A stretch of 64,000 nucleotides of DNA from a virus (Duplodnaviria; Caudoviricetes), in IMG/VR virus record IMGVR_UViG_3300012664_000155, positions 925 to 64,924 of that record. One strand, written 5' to 3'. Below, piece by piece: positions 17,649 to 52,007 of the stretch (within the stretch, counting starts at the first letter, position 1; each line of letters starts with the position of its first letter). Under the pieces are notes generated by a model that was not told where the DNA came from, searched no databases, and worked only from the letters and a program-made list of their open reading frames with translations. Made by a program: the position numbers and the translations under genes.

Positions 17649-19683
<2,035 letters not shown>

Positions 19684-22290: not shown

Positions 22291-22343
22291 GTTGACAAAT
22301 ATACGCATTAATTCCAATGAAACAAGGGGTGGAAGAAAAAAAT

Positions 22344-22659
22344 ATTTGACACCATGTCGACTTATGTCGCTCTATGTCGATAGAATGTTGTCAAAAACGG
22401 CGCTGTATCGTAGGCTGGGCTTGAGAAGTTGCTAAAAAAATGTTGACACGCATGGTTCGGAGAAAATTTTTTTTATTTTTTTTTATTTCTTTATATACTC
22501 TCTTATATAGTGTTTTTTTTATTTTTTTCTATAGTAGTAGTGGTGTCAACATTTTAAAGAAAAAAAAGAGTCTAAAAGCCTATAAACAGTGGGATAGCTC
22601 GATTTTTTTTGTCGACATTTTTGCGTCATACGTCGACATAAAAACGTGAATATCGACAT
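22344..22659. repeat. iteron element A: ATGT(C/T)GAC repeats in inverted arrays around an AT-rich core (putative origin)
   Basis: Copies at 22354, 22364, 22374, 22385, 22440; inverted copies at 22545, 22611, 22632, 22652; about 10-bp phasing. Confidence 0.75.
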
Positions 22660-23315
22660 AAAAGGGGGTCTAGCGTCATGGAATTAGAAATATGGAGGTG
22701 TTGGGTAATATACCTATTCAACGTAAAAAATCAAAAAAGAAAACCGACTTTAATTTTGATGGGGGGGTGTTGATTTCGAACTTTTTCCGCTAGATTTTCA
22801 GCTTTTCTGTAGGGGGTACATCCATCCATACAGCCCTATGTTTATTCGTTGCTGTGGTTTCTTCTGTCGTTCGATACGCTACATCGCCCTGCCTGCCTAC
22901 GTTTCAGCCGATATATAGTTCTATTTAACATAATGCTTGTTATAAGACAGCTAAACATAACTCATTGAACTACAGATAGTTAGCTCTGCCATTTCACCTG
23001 GATTTACCTATCTTCGTTCGTTATCAACATTTTAAGCGTCAAAATTGCACCCATTTTCAGCCCTATTTTTTGCCCCCTATACGCGAGCGCGCGTTATTGA
23101 ATCCTGCGCCCATGCGTCGCGTCTTATCGAGTGATTTAGCCGTAAAATGGGCTTGTTGCCCTTATTTCATCGAGGTTTACAGAGCTTTTGAATTATATCT
23201 GTCCAAATATCCCCCCAAACAACAAATTTTAAAATTTTTTTTCGTTCATAACTCCTTTAAAATCAATCGATTACAACACCGAACAAAAAATAATTGAAAA
23301 AAAATGTCAAAAAAG

Positions 23316-23346
23316 TTTGGAGATATAAACATTAGCACTACCTTTG
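23316..23346 (+). promoter_or_regulatory. first early promoter (-33 TTTG 23316-23319, -7 TACCTTTG 23339-23346)
   Basis: Perfect Bacteroidota consensus with 19-nt spacer at the head of the plus-strand block. Confidence 0.8.
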
Positions 23347-23351
23347 CTGAG

Positions 23352-23668
23352 CAGTTCAACGGAATTGTATTCAAGTTTTGACTTATGTGTACAAGGGTAA
23401 TTAAAAGGGCGAGACAAAGCGCACCACCATACAGGACACTCAAAACATTATTAGTTCTTTGATTACGAGATGCATGTGAGGATTCACAACGAAAGGCAGA
23501 ACCGCGGTTTGAGTGTACCGCGACAACAAAACACCCGACATAGGCTAAGTCGGTGAACACAGAGCCAATCCCTCCTAGGGGTATTAATACTAGGACGCAA
23601 TGCTCAGCGGAGGTAACTAAGATGGGTCGAGTAACTGAGGTAGAAAGCAGGTAATCGAAAAAAGCTTA
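23352..23668 (+). ncRNA. putative ~315-nt structured early leader RNA
   Basis: No credible plus-strand ORF; hairpins CGCGGU/ACCGCG, CCGAC/GUCGG, UCCUAG/CUAGGA, CUCAG/CUGAG, GUGA/UCAC, UUGUA/UACAA; ACACUCAAA/UUUGAGUGU long-range pairing. Confidence 0.5.
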
Positions 23669-23712
23669 AGCGGATGAGTGTCCGCTCTGATGATTCCAAA
23701 AGGATGAAAAGC
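23664..23712 (+). ncRNA. type III hammerhead ribozyme
   Basis: GCUU-A / AGCGGA-UGAGUG-UCCGCU / CUGAUGA / UUCC-AAAA-GGAU / GAAA-AGC: core, stems I-III and UUA cleavage triplet all present; U10.1-U11.1 mismatch. Confidence 0.85.
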
Positions 23713-23732
23713 AAACTTTAAAATTTAATAAG

Positions 23733-23900
23733 ATGAAGAATTTAAACAAAGAAAATAGAATGGCGTTGGCTTATTCTTTTACTATTTCAGACGAAGAGAG
23801 AAAAGACAATCTTAATAAGTCTATAAACAGACGTTTATCTAAGCGTTTTAAGAATGTTTCTTCAGTTGACAGATTTTATTTAACAACTTTATTTTTATGA
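23733..23900 (+). CDS. first early protein, hypothetical (55 aa)
   Basis: MKNLNKENRMALAYSFTISDEERKDNLNKSINRRLSKRFKNVSSVDRFYLTTLFL. Confidence 0.6.
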   Translation: MKNLNKENRMALAYSFTISDEERKDNLNKSINRRLSKRFKNVSSVDRFYLTTLFL

Positions 23901-24049
23901 ACTACATTTTTGAGGTAGTCCTATGGGACGAGACAGGCAACGTGTTGCTATTTAAAAAGGACGTTTCAATAAGACGTGCGACACAACGAACGGCAAAGGA
24001 ATATTTACAGAAAAAATACCCTTTTCCATATTTTATAGAACGTAAATAA
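23897..24049 (+). CDS. hypothetical protein (50 aa)
   Basis: ATGA-coupled; MNYIFEVVLWDETGNVLLFKK... Confidence 0.6.
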   Translation: MNYIFEVVLWDETGNVLLFKKDVSIRRATQRTAKEYLQKKYPFPYFIERK

Positions 24050-24056
24050 TAACAAG

Positions 24057-24299
24057 ATGATACAACTAACAGAAACGCGCTTCGAGAATGGCGCAAAGAC
24101 AATCGAGACAAAAGAAATTGACATGCGTCAATACAACGACATCACGAACGACGACACGTTAAAATGGTTTAGACGTTTGGGCGGTAGTGAGACAGCAACG
24201 CGTAGCTACACATCGAGAGGGTACAACGTGACTAAGTTAATAAGCACAAGCCCCGACAAATCAACACGAGTAATAAGAGAATTTAATTTTATAGACTGA
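24057..24299 (+). CDS. hypothetical early protein
   Basis: 80 aa; FRRLGGSETATRSYTSRGY...LISTSPD. Confidence 0.75.
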   Translation: MIQLTETRFENGAKTIETKEIDMRQYNDITNDDTLKWFRRLGGSETATRSYTSRGYNVTKLISTSPDKSTRVIREFNFID

Positions 24300-24532
24300 T
24301 GGACATAGCAAGAAACACAAATATGCGAGCTATTAAGTACTACAACAGACCGCTAAAAGTTAAGCGATGGTTGAATAGAAACGGCATCGCAACATTCGAG
24401 GACATCACGAACGAACAAAGCTATGAGCTTCTGTCGTATATGATGCCGAAATTTAAAAAGAGAAAAAAAGTAGTTAGTACATACGTACCATACACATCAA
24501 ATCAAGAACTATCAATATGGGCAAGAGTTTAA
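24299..24532 (+). CDS. hypothetical early protein
   Basis: 77-aa coupled ORF. Confidence 0.6.
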   Translation: MDIARNTNMRAIKYYNRPLKVKRWLNRNGIATFEDITNEQSYELLSYMMPKFKKRKKVVSTYVPYTSNQELSIWARV

Positions 24533-24615
24533 AAAGAGGCGCGTCTGTAGGCGTATTGTATGCGGTAACGATGGGAATTATCGTATTATTATTAATCATA
24601 TTCGAGGTATCATGA
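24517..24615 (+). CDS. small TM peptide (32 aa)
   Basis: MGKSLKRGASVGVLYAVTMGIIVLLLIIFEVS. Confidence 0.5.
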   Translation: MGKSLKRGASVGVLYAVTMGIIVLLLIIFEVS

Positions 24616-43834: not shown

Positions 43835-43868
43835 AACAACCCAGTTTAGTCTGGGTTGTTTCTTTTTA
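43835..43868. terminator. terminator between convergent early and late blocks
   Basis: 10-bp stem aacaacccag/ctgggttgtt followed by tcttttt. Confidence 0.8.
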
Positions 43869-46800
43869 TCTAAATATTATTTTTCTTCTTTCAGCCTCCT
43901 TAGGTTTTACCTCAGCATAACCACCTGACAATATTATCTTTAAGTTTTTATCACTTAAGTTTAACTTATCCTTTAGTTCGGTTCTAAGTTTACCAGAGTC
44001 GACACCTAATCTCTCAGCTGAGTTATAATCCTCCATCAACTGCTTATAGATTTCTTCTGTCTTTGAGTTAGCTTTTTCTAGAGCTTTTTCTTTTTCTTCA
44101 TCAGTTGCTTTCTCATTTCTAGAGATACTAGAGTACAACTCCTTAGCCTTATCAAGTCTGTCTCTATAGTCATAAACTCTATATCCAAAGCTCTCACCAA
44201 CATCAATCTTAATAGGTCTATATCCAGTTGAAGCGCCTATTACTTCTTTTAACTTATCTTCTGAATTTGATATTCTAAGAGCAGAAGTTACAGTTCCAGG
44301 TTGAGCAATTCCAAATGCAAATTCAGCAATATTTCCTGCTATTCCGTTCCAGTCATCTTCTGAGTTCCAGATAGGTCTGTCGTAGTTATCAGTACCAGAC
44401 ACTAAATTAAACATTGCCTTAGCGGTCATCTCTGGCTCAAGGAATGGTTTAAATATACTAAACATTGCCTCTTTAGCTCCATCTATAGGGTCATCTCCAC
44501 CAAAGAAAGCGTTGAATGCTTTACCTATGCCCCCATGTGGATCAGATGCAGACATATCAATATATGTTATTGTGCCATCACTATTCTTAATAGGGATTAT
44601 ATCTGACTGTGTAGACCATGGCGGTAAGAACTTTCTTAAATCTTTTTCTTTTTCTTTTTCATCATCATCATCTCCAAAGTATCCTGCTAATCCTGCTAGA
44701 CCCATTCCAAATGCACTTCCATAAAAAGAAAGTAACGCATTCTTAGCACTAAGATATGTCAATGTACCTATAACTCTCCTTGCTCCAATAGCTCTTATTG
44801 CTGGATTTTTGCTAGTTATCTCGCTCTTGGCAAGTTGCATTGTCTTGAATGCTGTTCTATATGATTCTGCCTGGAAAGATATAAAGTTACCAAGTAATGG
44901 AGATTTTCTAAGCGTCTTTACAATTTTAGGTATTCTACTAAATGTAGGCATAGTGTCCTTAACTATGTTAGCAACAGTTGCGTCTATTTTAGATCTCTCA
45001 GAATCTGTTAAATCTTTAACATCTTTATTAAACTCAGCTTTAGCGTATCTTCTTAGTTCACTTTCATAAGCAAGTACCTTGAAGAAGTCATCCTCTGCCT
45101 GATAAGCTGTTTCAGCAGCAGAACCAATTGATTTTGCAATTCTTTTTCCTCTTCCAAGTACCGAAGCAATAGGTTTCTTTTTTATACTAGGTCTCTTAGA
45201 TAGTCTCTCAGCTAGCGACTTATCAAAGTCAGCATCCTTGAACATATCTCTGATCTCTCCGATACCAGCAGATTGCTTCATTATACCTAGCTCTATGTAT
45301 TTATCTATTCTCTTTCTTATTTCTTCATTTGATGAGTTACTTATGTCTGAATATATTGCCTTAAATGCATCAACAGCACCAGATGTATGACCATTTACAG
45401 CTACGAAACCTAAGTTACCAAATAAATTCTTTGCATGAGTCATAACAGATCCAATGGTCTTACCCCATTTTATCATAGATATAGCCTTCATGTAGATCTT
45501 CATCAACTTTCCTAGTTCTCCTGGTAAGTTGTTGAATTCTTTTGCAATCTCAGGAGTTGTGTATAACCCATTTAATGGATTCATTGCATCACTTCCTGGA
45601 GCTGCTATCATTACATTATATCCCTCTGGACGTGTCTTCTCTGTAAATAGATATACTCCCATTCCTGTATCCTTGATCTTATTTAAGAAGTCATTCTTAG
45701 CAGAAAGAGCAGAAAGTTTCATGACTGTCTCAGCATAGTTCTGTACAGGATCAGTGAACTCACCCATTAACTGTCTAATCTCTATTGGAATATTAGTTCT
45801 TTCCTTGAACACACCAAGTTCTTTTGACTTGCTTCCAAGTTTTCCTCCACCTAGAAATTCATCTGCGCTTATCTTATTTGTGTATTTATCAATTTTATTA
45901 TTAACCAATCTATTCAACTCAAAGTCTACCTCAGTACCTTTTATTTTAGCTATTCTTTTAGCTTCATTAAGATTTTGTTTCATTAATAAATTCTTAGCTC
46001 TCTGTACAATCTCTTCCTTAGCCTTGTAATCTTTATTTTTAAACACCTCATAAGATCTGGTCAGATAAGAGCCTAAATTTTCTTGAATCTCTTTTGCTAC
46101 TTTTAATGGAGCTATACCTGCATTTATTATATTTCTAGATAATGCATCGATCTGATTACGCATCTCATTAGCAACGATCTTTGCATCGTCTGAAATATCT
46201 ACTTTTTTATTACCTCTTAGGTATGCGTCATAGTTCTCTAAAAACTTCTCTCTTAAATCTTTAGGTATAGCATTGTAAACCTTATTGAAGTCCTTAGATA
46301 TTCTAACAACTTTATTTAAAGCTTCAGCTATTGCTCCTTCCATATTTTCCTGAGCCTCAAACATCGAGTTAGTTCTGCTTCCCTTTGTAGTCAACTGATC
46401 TTTAGACCATTTCTTTATAGATTGAGCTATCTTAGGAAGACCAGTTTTTGGATCGTTCAAGAATACGTTGTCTTTAACAGCGTTATATCTTCGGATTGCC
46501 TCTTGTGATTGTGAACCCTTTATACCTTGATTTTCTAAATATTTTTTAATTGCAGCATCAGTAAATCCTTGATCTTTTAATTTTTTAATCGTATCATCAA
46601 TATTTAACTGATCTCTAGATAATGAATCAGTATTTAGCTTTAATCCTCTAACAGATACACCACTTGAAGGATATACTTTTTTAAATCTATCCTCAGTAAC
46701 TATTTTTTTTGTTTTAAAATCTTCAAAAACATCAGACCATGTTACTCTATCAGTTAATATATGAAGCTTAACCTTTCCATCAGCTTCAATAGCTTTTGGA

Positions 46801-49800
46801 TATGATTCATGTTTATCAGAGTCAACATCTTTAACCATTCCATCAACTTCTAGTATAGCATAAACCTGACCTCCTTTTGTTCTGTCAACACCAGTCTTAA
46901 GGAGTGGTTCTGTAAGCATTTCAGAAATACCTTGCTTTAAATTTGTTGCAGATATTTTAAAACCTCCACCGTCTTTTTTAGATCTTGGAGAAGCCTTAAA
47001 TGATTCATTCTTAATTCCTTCGCTGAAAAATTTAACAAATTGATCTTCAGCTTTAGGATTTTCTTTAATTATATTTGCAACATTTGATATTAAACTTTCT
47101 GCAAAAAACTTTCTATCATCAAAAGAACTTTTCTCAGGGTCTAATTTTTTAGAAATTTCAGATTTAATATCATCTATAGATAATCCAGGTTTTAAATTTA
47201 ATTTTAAACCTACTTCCTTCATTCTATATTGTTTATTTCCTTTTGAATCTAATATAGGTTCTTTTGTATTTTTATCAACAATTGCTGTTTTTCTTATTAC
47301 AAATTTATTTGCTGCATCAAGTAAAGATTGTTTTACTTGTGTTTGATTTATTGAGAAATTTTTATCAAAAGCTTTTGATATAATAATCTCCATTACACCA
47401 TTAGAAGCTGTAGTGCTTGATAAAAGTTTATTACTAGGAGCTGTTGTAAGAGCCATTAATATCTTACCTCCATTTTCTTTATAAACTTTATTCAAATCTT
47501 TAGCCATTTTTTCAGCAGCAGATTTAGTGCTTGCCCAGAAATAACCATCTTCATGAAACTTTATTGGATAATAAACTCCATCTTTCCCTTCTACAAGAAG
47601 TTCACCATTTTTGTAAATCATTCCAGAGAACGCTGCGTCTGGTTGGTGTAAAAATATAGTTTTTCCATTAAAATCTGATATAGATTTATCTTTTGTTATA
47701 TATCCTTCTTCTTCTAAAGCTTTAAATTTTTCTGTGTTTTTATCATAAACAAATTCTACTTTAGATGCAGGATCTATAAAATCAGCTTGAAATCTTGAGT
47801 TTGCATCTGCTATCTCTTCAGAAGAAGGAATAATTTCAACATCAGACTCAGTTATTTCCTTACCGCTTGCAATCTTACCTGCGATAGTTTTAAGAGCGTC
47901 ATATGTATCGTTTGTTCTTTCAAGACCAAACATATCTGCTAACTTATTAATCCATCTAGTAATAATATCCTTAATAGGCGTTGTAAATGAGTTGTAGTTC
48001 TCAGCTAACTTACCAATAAACTCAGCTAGTTTCTCTTCGTTCTGTAAATTACTTTCATACTGAGAAGAAAAATCATCTAAGTACTTTTTTAAAGATGGAT
48101 TTTTATCAATCTTTTGAGCGATAGCATCAACTAATTTTTTAGTAATATCCTGAGCGTTAGCGTTTGTCTTAACCTTATTTAGTAACACAGCATGGAACAC
48201 CTCGTGAGCTACAGTTCTAGCGTTAGCATTTACTGAATTTATATGTATTATATTTGTTTTTGAATCAAACTTACCGTTAGAAAACTTACCTTTATCACCA
48301 ACAGCTTGGTTATATTCTTCCTGTGTAGCATGAACTTTTATTTTAACTTCTGGCAACACATTAGACAATGCCTTTGCAGCTCTAGAAACAGATCTTGCTA
48401 TACGTTTGTTTTTAATTCTAGATACCTTTTTATTTATCTCCGCATCTGTTCCTGAAATAAACTCACTAATTGCCTCAACCTCGCTTTCAATTGCTGTTTT
48501 CTTTGGGTTAGGGATGTATATTTTTTTAGATTTATCACCATTTTCATACACAAATCTTCTTCCATCTTCACCTGTTATAATCCTTTGATTTTTCTTAACA
48601 GTTCCGTCCTGGTTGTTTTTAACCTCTACAGATTTACCTGTTGGTGAAACCTTAGTAGAGTACTTATCTTGACTAGTAGTATTATCGGTAGAATCCTCGT
48701 ATTCACTTTTTATAAATCCTTCATTATCAATGTTAGGATCTTTTAGTGTTTCTATCTCATCTTGTATTTTGAATGCCTCTTCTTCAGATAAACCACCCTC
48801 CTCAAGTTTAGATTCAAGTTCTGATATTCTTCCTAGATTTTCAGTTTCTTTTGATGGATTAATAGTTTTAGTGACAGGCTGTTGAGCTTCTTTAGTAGTA
48901 ACTTCTGAAGTTTTTTTAATGTTTAAATTAGGATCTAAATCAACTTTTTCAAAACTATCAATAGTACTGTCTTTAATATCTTTATAAACATTTGAGGTGT
49001 TTTCTATTGCTTTTTTAATAAGAATATCTGAAATATTATCAGGCAAGTTTCCGTCATCTTCTATAGTAGCTATTGTATAACCGTCTCGACCTAATGTTGT
49101 TCCATTTACTCCCTTTATTTTTAAACCTGCTACTATATAATTTTTACCTTTACGTTCTATTTTAGTAACGAAAGATTTTCTTTTAGCCATTTTATCATAT
49201 ACTTCATTTGATCCTCTAACATCAAATGCGTTATTAGAAAACATGATAGCTCCTTCGTTCAATCCACTTAATGATATATTTTTTTCTATTTCCTCTTGGC
49301 TGCTGATATTGCTATCGCCAGTATCTGCGCTCGGCTTCTCGGTTTCCCCGACTGCCCCTTCTCCTTGCCCGATTTCTTGTTGTCCTTCATCAGTTCCTTC
49401 ACGTTGTACGATATAGCCTTCTGTACTGACTTCTTGTTTGTTGCTTTCTTTAGTGGCATTTTCTCCGATTGTTTTTAGTTCGTTATTTATTTCTTCTATT
49501 CTAGCTTTTTGATTATAAATAAGACTCTCGTCTTTTCCATCAATTTCTTTCTCTATTTTCTTTCTTTCAGCTAATAATTTAAAAGATTGTGTCTTGTCTT
49601 CAATATTATCTGGTATCTCTTTTAATAAACCTATAGATTCATTTAGTTCTTGAACTTGATCTTGTGCTTGTTTAGTGGTTATTTGACCATTAAGAACTTT
49701 ATATTTTAAATCTTTTTCAAATACTTCTTTTACAGCTGGATCTTTTGCTAGTCCTTCTATTTGTTTAACTTGATTAGACGTTCTAGTTTCTCTAGTAGTT

Positions 49801-52007
49801 TGTAAAACTTGTGGTATAGAAGACATTAATGCACCTCCTAATAGTCCTAATTTATAGCTTTCAGAAACTCTATCAAGCATCTCACCATAAGTTCCATTTT
49901 TAAAAATATCTTTTTCTTCAATTGCATTATAGGCTTCTTTTAAACCAATATCAGCCATTTCTTGTAATGCTTCTGTTGTTCCCTCTACATTTCCTTTAGC
50001 TGTTAAATTAAGGACACCTTTAGTGATTAATGTTTTTACATTTGAGTTTATAGCATTGTCAATAGCTTCTTTCGATGCATCTTTAGGAAGATCTTTAAAT
50101 GCTTTAGATATTATCCAAGAAGTAACTTTCCCTCCAACTGGAGTTTTAGTAAACCATTTAGACATACCAAAAGATTCTAATTTAGATGATACATATCCGT
50201 AAGCACCGCTTAATAATACTTTATCAGCTTCACTAATTTTTGCAGTATCAGGATCTGAATTTATTTGATCCTTAAAATTCATATAAGAACTAGCAGCCAT
50301 TCCAATTTGACTAGGACTTAATAATGCTTTCTTAGTTATGTTTTTAATTATTTCTGTACCAGTTTTTTTTATTAATGCTCCTTCAACAGCAACAGCTTGT
50401 CCTGCCCCAGGAATTGGAATTGAAGCAGCAGCTCCTAATGATTCAGCTATACCAGCTATAGTTTTTTCTAAGTCCCCTCTTTTATTGCTAGATATATACT
50501 CTTCAGTAATTATACCAGGGAGTATATCATTAAAATCTTCCTTGCTTAATACATCTGTATTATATATTCTATTCCCTTTTGAGTCATAAACTGGAGTTTC
50601 TGTGTAATCATGTAATTCTTTTAAAGCTCTAGTAGTTTGAATAAATCCATTTGCAAAGCCTGCTAATATATTACTTGCAGCATCACCTCTATCTTCATTA
50701 GCTAATGCTTTTTCAGCAATAACTTTTTCCATTAAATCTCTATCTTCTCCTATAGTTTTTTTCTCTTCATTTATTTCTGATAACTTATCTTTTATATTTT
50801 GTTTTTTAAATACATAAGCCTCATCATTTACTATACTGTTGTATTGATCTAATGTTATTTCTCCATTTGAATATTTTTCTTTTATTTCATTATCGAATTC
50901 TTGATCTTTTTTAATTTCATCTTTCAATATTACAGCATTAGCTATTAGTCTAGATGTGTTTTCATTAAAAGATTTATCTGCATCTTTTATTTTTTTATCA
51001 CCATACATTGCAGCAGATGCATATTTACCTTTTGATAAAGCATATCCCTTTCTGTAAAATTCTTGCTTCTTTATTTCTTTATTTACATCTGATAATTCTT
51101 GCTCAAGAGATTGAGTATTGACCCCCTGCCCAGAAGATAATTGATTAGTTATATTTTTTCTTTTTTCTACTAAATCATTATACTTCTTAAAAGATAAATT
51201 AGATTCTATAAAACTTCCTAATATATTCTTTTCAGTTTCACTTCCATCTAAATCTACAGTAATTGTCTGATCAGTTTTCTTATTAGTAATCTTTAACATA
51301 TTACCAACACCAGTTTCTTCAAAATCAAATATATCATCTGGAGTACCTCTAAATTTATTTCTTAAATCTTCAACAGTTTGTTCTTCTGTCTTGTTTACAT
51401 AATTAGAAGCTTCTTTAGATATTTTTTCAACTCTATTTCTTTCAAGTACAATAGGATCGTTTTTCTCTAAAACTTCGAAATCTTTTTTAAATAGCTGTTG
51501 TTGTTTTTTATCTGTTTTTGTTTGAGCTCCTGTACTTTTACTAACTACTGGAGCAGCCTCTGGCTTCCATGTAATGCTTTTTTCATAATCAGCATCAAAC
51601 AATGGACGAGCTACTTTATCTAAATATTCAGATTTTTTCTTTATATCACCTTGTTGAATCTGCTTGAAATTTCCATTTCTATTTACATCTGTATACCAAT
51701 CATTACCTACCTTTTTAAATACAGCTGTAGAATTAGGTGCTGAATATAATTTACTTTCCGAACCAGAAGATACCGAAGGCTTTTTTATTTCCGTTGTTGA
51801 TGTAGCCAATGATACATCTCCCTGATTTTGTTCTGAAGGAGACACCATAGTGCTTTTTTTTTTAACGCTTCTTCCTGTTGGAAATACAGGTCCTTCACCT
51901 TCTACTGAAGGAGATGCACCCTTTTCTTTAGAAATTACAGGTCCTTCATTTTGTTTTAAATTAGATTTTTTTCTTCCTGTTGGAAATATAGGTCCGTCGT
52001 TATTCAT
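43866..52007 (-). CDS. giant polyvalent virion/ejection protein (zincin HExxH module, LPD38-like C-terminus)
   Basis: 2713 aa; IHINSVNANARTVAHEVFH metallopeptidase motif; last gene of the internal-virion cluster. Confidence 0.7.
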   Translation of the reverse strand: MNNDGPIFPTGRKKSNLKQNEGPVISKEKGASPSVEGEGPVFPTGRSVKKKSTMVSPSEQNQGDVSLATSTTEIKKPSVSSGSESKLYSAPNSTAVFKKVGNDWYTDVNRNGNFKQIQQGDIKKKSEYLDKVARPLFDADYEKSITWKPEAAPVVSKSTGAQTKTDKKQQQLFKKDFEVLEKNDPIVLERNRVEKISKEASNYVNKTEEQTVEDLRNKFRGTPDDIFDFEETGVGNMLKITNKKTDQTITVDLDGSETEKNILGSFIESNLSFKKYNDLVEKRKNITNQLSSGQGVNTQSLEQELSDVNKEIKKQEFYRKGYALSKGKYASAAMYGDKKIKDADKSFNENTSRLIANAVILKDEIKKDQEFDNEIKEKYSNGEITLDQYNSIVNDEAYVFKKQNIKDKLSEINEEKKTIGEDRDLMEKVIAEKALANEDRGDAASNILAGFANGFIQTTRALKELHDYTETPVYDSKGNRIYNTDVLSKEDFNDILPGIITEEYISSNKRGDLEKTIAGIAESLGAAASIPIPGAGQAVAVEGALIKKTGTEIIKNITKKALLSPSQIGMAASSYMNFKDQINSDPDTAKISEADKVLLSGAYGYVSSKLESFGMSKWFTKTPVGGKVTSWIISKAFKDLPKDASKEAIDNAINSNVKTLITKGVLNLTAKGNVEGTTEALQEMADIGLKEAYNAIEEKDIFKNGTYGEMLDRVSESYKLGLLGGALMSSIPQVLQTTRETRTSNQVKQIEGLAKDPAVKEVFEKDLKYKVLNGQITTKQAQDQVQELNESIGLLKEIPDNIEDKTQSFKLLAERKKIEKEIDGKDESLIYNQKARIEEINNELKTIGENATKESNKQEVSTEGYIVQREGTDEGQQEIGQGEGAVGETEKPSADTGDSNISSQEEIEKNISLSGLNEGAIMFSNNAFDVRGSNEVYDKMAKRKSFVTKIERKGKNYIVAGLKIKGVNGTTLGRDGYTIATIEDDGNLPDNISDILIKKAIENTSNVYKDIKDSTIDSFEKVDLDPNLNIKKTSEVTTKEAQQPVTKTINPSKETENLGRISELESKLEEGGLSEEEAFKIQDEIETLKDPNIDNEGFIKSEYEDSTDNTTSQDKYSTKVSPTGKSVEVKNNQDGTVKKNQRIITGEDGRRFVYENGDKSKKIYIPNPKKTAIESEVEAISEFISGTDAEINKKVSRIKNKRIARSVSRAAKALSNVLPEVKIKVHATQEEYNQAVGDKGKFSNGKFDSKTNIIHINSVNANARTVAHEVFHAVLLNKVKTNANAQDITKKLVDAIAQKIDKNPSLKKYLDDFSSQYESNLQNEEKLAEFIGKLAENYNSFTTPIKDIITRWINKLADMFGLERTNDTYDALKTIAGKIASGKEITESDVEIIPSSEEIADANSRFQADFIDPASKVEFVYDKNTEKFKALEEEGYITKDKSISDFNGKTIFLHQPDAAFSGMIYKNGELLVEGKDGVYYPIKFHEDGYFWASTKSAAEKMAKDLNKVYKENGGKILMALTTAPSNKLLSSTTASNGVMEIIISKAFDKNFSINQTQVKQSLLDAANKFVIRKTAIVDKNTKEPILDSKGNKQYRMKEVGLKLNLKPGLSIDDIKSEISKKLDPEKSSFDDRKFFAESLISNVANIIKENPKAEDQFVKFFSEGIKNESFKASPRSKKDGGGFKISATNLKQGISEMLTEPLLKTGVDRTKGGQVYAILEVDGMVKDVDSDKHESYPKAIEADGKVKLHILTDRVTWSDVFEDFKTKKIVTEDRFKKVYPSSGVSVRGLKLNTDSLSRDQLNIDDTIKKLKDQGFTDAAIKKYLENQGIKGSQSQEAIRRYNAVKDNVFLNDPKTGLPKIAQSIKKWSKDQLTTKGSRTNSMFEAQENMEGAIAEALNKVVRISKDFNKVYNAIPKDLREKFLENYDAYLRGNKKVDISDDAKIVANEMRNQIDALSRNIINAGIAPLKVAKEIQENLGSYLTRSYEVFKNKDYKAKEEIVQRAKNLLMKQNLNEAKRIAKIKGTEVDFELNRLVNNKIDKYTNKISADEFLGGGKLGSKSKELGVFKERTNIPIEIRQLMGEFTDPVQNYAETVMKLSALSAKNDFLNKIKDTGMGVYLFTEKTRPEGYNVMIAAPGSDAMNPLNGLYTTPEIAKEFNNLPGELGKLMKIYMKAISMIKWGKTIGSVMTHAKNLFGNLGFVAVNGHTSGAVDAFKAIYSDISNSSNEEIRKRIDKYIELGIMKQSAGIGEIRDMFKDADFDKSLAERLSKRPSIKKKPIASVLGRGKRIAKSIGSAAETAYQAEDDFFKVLAYESELRRYAKAEFNKDVKDLTDSERSKIDATVANIVKDTMPTFSRIPKIVKTLRKSPLLGNFISFQAESYRTAFKTMQLAKSEITSKNPAIRAIGARRVIGTLTYLSAKNALLSFYGSAFGMGLAGLAGYFGDDDDEKEKEKDLRKFLPPWSTQSDIIPIKNSDGTITYIDMSASDPHGGIGKAFNAFFGGDDPIDGAKEAMFSIFKPFLEPEMTAKAMFNLVSGTDNYDRPIWNSEDDWNGIAGNIAEFAFGIAQPGTVTSALRISNSEDKLKEVIGASTGYRPIKIDVGESFGYRVYDYRDRLDKAKELYSSISRNEKATDEEKEKALEKANSKTEEIYKQLMEDYNSAERLGVDSGKLRTELKDKLNLSDKNLKIILSGGYAEVKPKEAERRKIIFR

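Follow-up and report, generated by a model that had tools for sequence, protein, structure and literature searches.

A predicted type III hammerhead ribozyme of the U10.1·U11.1 subclass before the first ORF of a phage operon, and the ribozyme family to which it leads

The biological role of prokaryotic and phage hammerhead ribozymes was still called open in a 2017 review (PMC6155905). The hammerhead HHphage of haloviruses HF1 and HF2 belongs to an early polycistronic transcript: 13 nt separate it from the first ORF, and the 5' end of the transcript was mapped to within 3 nt of the cut (PMC3088659). For phage PaP3, an 'entire HH' oligonucleotide (GUCGUA UCGGGA UGUGUG UCCCGG CUGAUGA UUCC UAAA GGAU GAAA CGAC; Table S1, PMC3088659) bears the label 'potential type3 HH at end of genome', and Fig. 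S6 of Perreault et al. 2011 (PMC3088659) includes PaP3 among the active core variants. The U10.1·U11.1 mismatch that this RNA carries is a known and tolerated natural variant (PMC3088659).

Here we analysed a viral stretch of 64,000 nt (the window); the viral record to which it belongs has terminal repeats and, at 64.9 kb, is only slightly longer. Portal, large terminase, tail fibre proteins, GroEL, primase and helicase are encoded in it, and the terminase, which has matches in Cellulophaga, Tenacibaculum and Maribacter phages too, shares 43% identity with those of Elemovirus, a genus of Flavobacterium phages. Genes left of 22317 point leftward, genes from 23733 to about 43.6 kb point rightward and open with many small overlapping ORFs, and the 1.1 kb between the two blocks is without a convincing ORF. 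Octamers resembling ATGTCGAC recur at 22337–22672, and a T-rich core there is flanked by AAAATGTTGACAC / GTGTCAACATTTT (22437–22449 and 22543–22555), a perfect inverted pair of 13 nt; together these look like an origin or operator array. Farther to the right, at 43866–52007 on the minus strand, a 2713-aa ORF without a PHROG or Pfam match stands beside a 1279-aa virion structural protein. The features of the ribozyme locus, all on the plus strand, are as follows.

23316–23346, plus strand: predicted Bacteroidota-type sigma-A promoter, TTTG-N19-TACCTTTG (consensus match)
23352–23668, plus strand: putative leader RNA of about 316 nt (bounds taken from the predicted promoter and cleavage site)
23664–23667, plus strand: 5' strand of stem III, GCUU (16.4–16.1); within stem III, U16.1-A15.1 never varies and the other three pairs carry compensatory changes
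23668, plus strand: cleavage-site nucleotide A17; predicted scissile bond 23668/23669, from its position relative to the core
23669–23686, plus strand: stem I hairpin, AGCGGA (23669–23674) with UCCGCU (23681–23686), loop UGAGUG; all six pairs covary
23687–23693, plus strand: catalytic core strand C3–A9, CUGAUGA; invariant in alignments A1–A3, partly because the search patterns imposed it
23694–23705, plus strand: stem II hairpin, the U10.1·U11.1 mismatch followed by UCC/GGA, loop AAAA; the inner pairs covary across the family
23706–23712, plus strand: core G12 A13 A14 (GAA, 23706–23708) and the 3' strand of stem III, AAGC, 15.1–15.4 (23709–23712)
23713–23732, plus strand: A/U-rich spacer of 20 nt between ribozyme and start codon; unpaired in the 161-nt fold
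23733–23900, plus strand: first ORF (ORF1, 55 aa) of the rightward small-ORF block; stop codon overlapping the start of the ORF that follows

Positions 23664–23712 read GCUU A AGCGGA UGAGUG UCCGCU CUGAUGA UUCC AAAA GGAU GAAA AGC, and the three-way junction was the minimum-free-energy fold both for the 49-mer alone and within its 161-nt context. All of the core nucleotides that define the hammerhead clan (CL00010) were present, namely C3, U4, G5, A6, N7, G8 and A9 together with G12, A13 and A14. A15.1 (A23709) pairs with U16.1 (U23667), a pair that was invariant across 124 relatives, and the nucleotide at position 17 (A23668) is not G. Stem III is open while stems I and II are closed by loops, which is the type III topology; core, topology and the three helices are those of the Rfam family RF00008. 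At the base of stem II, G10.1-C11.1 is absent and U23694 faces U23705 instead. The loops carry U at the 5' end of loop I and A at the 3' end of loop II, the nucleotides of a proposed tertiary contact; loop I UGNGUG and loop II NAAA were nearly invariant in 124 copies, an invariance that the search pattern imposed in part. A preliminary description of this DNA had proposed a type III hammerhead here, and each element of its core, stems and loops was found where it had been placed. Its predicted cut after A23668 agrees with the position relative to the core, its atypical U10.1-U11.1 pair is the natural variant mentioned above, and its distance of 64 nt from the new 5' end (23669) to the ATG at 23733 was confirmed. 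A family model scan found one hammerhead copy in the window.

On its sequence, the window copy is a member of the same U10.1·U11.1/A17 subclass as the PaP3 hammerhead. It shares with PaP3 and the Bruynoghevirus group the type III form, a 6-bp stem I, loop UGNGUG, the U10.1·U11.1 mismatch, stem II UUCC/GGAU, a 4-bp stem III and A17, and in those phages too the ribozyme follows a long non-coding stretch and directly precedes the first gene at the genome end. Apart from the covarying stems I and III, the window and PaP3 RNAs differ by no more than one base per loop (loop II is AAAA in the window and UAAA in PaP3), whereas the host phylum and the phage group are unrelated. The start codon overlaps or abuts stem III in the Pseudomonas phages, whereas 20 nt separate the two in the window. 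A ribozyme of this subclass was found in 72 Pseudomonas phage records of the group and, among the matches listed, was unannotated in nearly all; the LUZ24 transcriptome paper, supplementary tables aside, does not mention it (PMC10914365). In phiIBB-PAA2, the ribozyme comes after the terminal repeat and three annotated sigma-70 promoters, is separated from these promoters by 400–700 nt of non-coding sequence and ends at the start codon of orf01. In this phage (L052 1120–1140) and in the PaP3 construct, AAGGA of loop II/stem II lies 7–10 nt before the orf01 start, so stem II in the Pseudomonas phages may double as a ribosome-binding site. Just upstream of orf05, at 2423–2480 of its record (L172:1501–1558), phiIBB-PAA2 has another hammerhead candidate, a weaker one of 23.6 bits whose stem II is the canonical GGCC/GGCC.

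Two further cases resemble the window in position. The HF1/HF2 ribozyme likewise sits just upstream of an operon's first ORF and is a precedent for the processing of an early phage leader; however, it has a two-nucleotide core insertion, an archaeal host and a high-salt adaptation, whereas the window core is the consensus. The cultured Flavobacterium phage vB_FspP_elemoE_6-9C carries a family member (39.3 bits; 18096–18152, minus strand) 16 nt before gp59, the gene with which a block of small ORFs opens at a divergent junction. Considering these cases together with PaP3 and phiIBB-PAA2, a hammerhead heading an early operon is a recurring and already described arrangement.

The predicted promoter lies about 320 nt upstream of the window ribozyme, and the transcription start is expected near 23352–23356. 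Two-box matches of this kind numbered five in the window, all of them intergenic and co-oriented with the following genes. The promoter is plausible and fits the assignment to a flavobacterial host; a strict two-box Bacteroidota promoter stood upstream of the ribozyme in only three other loci. The preliminary description had placed the hammerhead between the first early promoter and the first early gene. The gene side of this placement held, with the first ORF beginning 64 nt downstream of the cut, while the promoter is a plausible consensus match and both transcription from 23316–23346 and its 'early' timing are what we infer from sequence. The putative leader was rejected as a structured RNA, its minimum free energy being no better than that of shuffles (z = −0.16), and as a decayed gene, tblastn with the ORFs that precede the relatives' ribozymes having left no trace in the window. 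For ORF1, PHROG and Pfam gave no match, and a test for a 'ribozyme plus gene' cassette turned up no relatives among viral contigs. Megablast and blastn of 22400–24400 found nothing among GenBank phages, and MW202828, the closest GenBank relative by terminase, had neither shared DNA for 22400–24400 nor a hammerhead hit. A search for RNA runs containing 23000–24600 listed none.

The pattern CTGATGA-N12-GAAA occurred once in the window, against 0.05 expected. A search with Rfam hammerhead models, a check named in the preliminary description, gave a divided answer: RF00008 (Hammerhead_3) hit the site with E = 0.0013 for this single family in this genome, but the 21.6 bits lie below the gathering score of 48.5. 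Comparative evidence was more informative. The exact 23 nt of core and stem II recurred in 50 viral contigs, from which 34 distinct copies were taken without a structural filter. In these copies, stems I and III formed standard pairs in 100% of 442 cells, and compensatory double changes occurred at nine of ten variable pairs (113 cells). None of 500 shuffles reached the observed covariation, and slid registers were likewise far off. A second scan, in which loop I and the core were kept and U at 10.1 was excluded, returned at least 119 loci; among the matches listed, 94 of the 103 distinct hits with a nucleotide other than U at 10.1 were perfect hammerheads of the same architecture. In an alignment of 124 sequences, covariation extended to the inner pairs of stem II; these sequences had been pre-filtered for pairing, so that the percentage paired is inflated while the diversity of pair types is unaffected; moreover, other U·U members have different inner stem II pairs. 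As to whether the U10.1-U11.1 pair is conserved in relatives, the other comparative check named, U·U was present in 73 of the 188 family copies collected. A family-specific model (R1) scored the window copy at 68.1 bits, as high as the family average. A second model (R2) was built from 89 canonical G10.1-C11.1 members, leaving out the window and all U·U copies; it scored the window site at 59.7 bits (rough E ~1e-16), the next best score in the 64 kb being 12.7 bits. The Rfam score alone is equivocal, but recurrence, covariation and the R2 score show that the site is more than chance, and on this comparative evidence 23664–23712 is a genuine type III hammerhead. PaP3's hammerhead, of the same subclass, is among the variants listed as active in vitro, and the window ribozyme is very probably active as well.

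The anatomy of the family was measured on 124 copies. The distance from the 3' end of stem III to the first ATG, counted as the first one opening an ORF of at least 30 codons, had a median of 23 nt (IQR 21–25.5) in the 121 of 124 copies where it could be measured, and it was 20–29 nt in 89 of these 121. The spacer was A-rich (51% A, 28% U) and essentially unfolded (median −0.4 kcal/mol over 36 nt). Upstream, a same-strand ORF of at least 60 codons ended 20–59 nt before the ribozyme in 90 of 116 members; the usual setting is thus between cistrons. In addition, a strong GC hairpin was found in the 36 nt upstream of the ribozyme in 79% of copies (median −14.6 kcal/mol vs. −5.5 for shuffles). As read from these sequences, the usual module of the family is a stop codon, a hairpin, the hammerhead, an A-rich spacer of about 23 nt and a start codon. 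Of this module, the window copy retains the part after the hammerhead, a 20-nt spacer followed by ATG; unlike most family members, it has neither the upstream hairpin (−3.9 kcal/mol) nor an upstream ORF. Several related contigs hold 2–5 hammerhead copies each between small, non-conserved ORFs, similar to the clustered prophage hammerheads that flank single genes (Perreault et al. 2011 Fig. 3, PMC3088659; PMC6155905). In contrast to those clusters, the window ribozyme stands alone, heads an operon and has no upstream ORF.

We consider it likely that the window element is a functional cis-cleaving hammerhead that processes an operon leader, so that the downstream cistron gets a defined 5' end and an insulated start region. 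Host RNA polymerase would start at the predicted promoter (23316–23346); the stem I and stem II hairpins would fold during transcription, and the 4-bp stem III would then close the three-way junction. The RNA would cut itself between A23668 and A23669, and the leader of about 316 nt, ending in a 2',3'-cyclic phosphate, would drop off quickly, since stem III has only four pairs. The operon mRNA would then open with a 5'-OH, the compact 44-nt ribozyme body, the 20-nt unstructured A/U-rich spacer and AUG 23733, and the cut would also uncouple the fates of the two RNA halves. Because the spacing to start codons is tight in the family, at about 23 nt, the role appears tied to the downstream cistron. 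Judging from this spacing, the cut most likely serves to define the 5' end and to shield the translation start region from the RNA upstream. Translation starts in Bacteroidota use open A-rich leaders rather than Shine-Dalgarno pairing, which would suit an insulated start region. A similar mode of working is known from RiboJ, a synthetic cis-cleaving type III hammerhead insulator placed between promoter/leader and ribosome-binding region in genetic circuits; RiboJ is an engineered satellite-RNA ribozyme to which a hairpin was added, and its likeness to the window ribozyme is confined to the mode of working. The 5'-OH end may also alter mRNA stability, in a direction that depends on host RNases. 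In minimal ribozymes, A17 is a slower cleavage site than C17, and the U·U mismatch removes G10.1; the cleavage rate may therefore be modest.

The ribozyme could instead serve mainly to form the 3' end of the RNA upstream, with the non-coding leader (23352–23668, about 316 nt) as the product and the effect on the downstream mRNA secondary. The window leader, lying between the predicted promoter and the cut, indeed has no ORF, phiIBB-PAA2 likewise has its 400–700 non-coding nt between promoters and the same ribozyme, and the GC hairpin abutting the ribozyme in 79% of members would protect the 3' end of an upstream fragment. However, this hairpin is what the window copy lacks (−3.9 kcal/mol), and the upstream element in most relatives is a protein-coding gene. 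The leader itself folded no better than shuffled sequence, gave no detectable match with what precedes the ribozyme at 43 other loci and was absent from the closest relatives. We regard a leader made for its own sake as unlikely, and processing in favour of the downstream cistron as the preferred reading.

The two closest relatives are L177 and L178. In L178 (GroEL 83% identical), window positions 22807–23896 were replaced by unrelated sequence without a hammerhead (L178:1884–3190), and in L177 (GroEL 93% identical) the replacement extended over 22807–24528 (L177:1393–2628); the flanks were 80–93% identical to the window. No other Rfam ribozyme was detected at the same place in L177 or L178 at E ≤ 1 beyond noise. 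The segment 22807–23896 carries the promoter, leader, hammerhead and ORF1 and, by these alignments, is a swappable early-region segment. Since the two closest relatives are without the element, the ribozyme is dispensable for this phage type. The relatives found through a 264-aa gene (L174–L176) had only that gene in common with the window and no hammerhead. In five GroEL-carrying relatives (L004, L029, L032, L038, L046), a conserved family of 320–340 aa ORFs, which is absent from the window, ends 30–47 nt before a syntenic U·U hammerhead; this ORF family had no Pfam or PHROG match.

With such a replacement, the copy might have hitch-hiked with the swapped-in 1.1-kb segment and have little or no role, or it might be decaying and too slow through U10.1·U11.1 and A17. 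The replacement of the segment in both L178 and L177, the mosaic early region and the lack of relatives for ORF1 would agree with a passenger. Nevertheless, the window copy has kept its core, each of its 13 pairs and the consensus of both loops, and its 68.1 bits equal the family average; the same subclass has been kept with compensatory changes in dozens of lineages, and it is listed as active in PaP3. We thus hold a passenger to be improbable, more so than a leader made as product. The weakest alternative, a chance look-alike or a stem I hairpin serving as an intrinsic terminator of the minus strand, draws on the sub-threshold Rfam score and a terminator-like site in a consensus scan (minus strand, 23687–23668, then a T run), but it is excluded by the covariation and the independent family model (E ~1e-16), the more so as no minus-strand gene to the right needs termination there and as the core and pairings, not the T run, are conserved in relatives.

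These comparisons also bear on the emphasis of the preliminary description, which had taken the processing of the very first phage transcript as the notable part. This emphasis is weakened: the HF1/HF2 hammerhead before an early first ORF had been described (PMC3088659), PaP3 of the same U·U subclass had already been tested, 90 of the 116 family members lie between cistrons, the two closest relatives do without a hammerhead and the U·U mismatch is a natural variant already known.

The variable pair at the base of stem II was correlated with the cleavage-site nucleotide. Among 188 distinct copies of the same architecture, C17 was found in 86 of the 108 with G10.1-C11.1 but in only 2 of the 77 with a U·U or A·A mismatch, the remainder having A or U (Fisher's p ~1e-28, in a test that ignores shared ancestry). 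The exact 23-mer was also present in 19 species genomes (L182–L200; GTDB), most of them MAGs of Saccharibacteria and other Patescibacteria, on contigs of up to 377 kb. Type III hammerheads made up 18 of these 19 copies, 17 with A17 and one with U17, many of them after a hairpin. In L200 (also L012; a 12,766-nt contig, apparently the same one), UUCC-AAAA-GGAU occurs in a type I form, with stem III closed by a loop and stem I open. No paper that connects hammerheads to flavobacterial phages or to Saccharibacteria came up in our literature search.

Based on these distributions, we tentatively put forward a rule that may be undescribed and that we think less likely to hold than not. According to this rule, compact type III hammerheads would be makers of per-cistron 5' ends about 23 nt before start codons, usually with an upstream hairpin that protects the 3' end, and the 10.1/11.1 mismatch with A17 or U17 could mark a distinct, possibly attenuated or regulated, catalytic subclass. 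The compact design, a 6-bp stem I with loop UGNGUG and a 4-bp stem II with loop NAAA, would be part of this same speculative reading. So would the stem II of the U·U or A·A subclass, UUCC-AAAA-GGAU, possibly kept letter for letter across Pseudomonas phages, flavobacterial phages and Saccharibacteria chromosomes.

The window copy is no new kind of ribozyme but a known U·U variant in a known type of location. It leads, however, to a large phage ribozyme family that is poorly annotated and falls below Rfam thresholds. A canonical family member scored 47.6 bits, against the RF00008 gathering score of 48.5, and the mismatch variants scored far lower; in 11 loci (L006, L007, L063, L064, L071, L091, L113, L124, L137, L171 and L172), no family member reached the gathering score. 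Standard annotation therefore misses the family, and a recurrent RNA-processing element is omitted from the annotation of these phage genomes. Cultured carriers exist in Flavobacterium phage elemoE and in Pseudomonas phages LUZ24 and PaP3. The three regularities of the family, namely the start-codon spacing of about 23 nt, the upstream hairpin in 79% of copies and the link of the 10.1/11.1 mismatch with the cleavage-site base, are of more interest than the single copy, and they make the question of the role of these hammerheads experimentally approachable.
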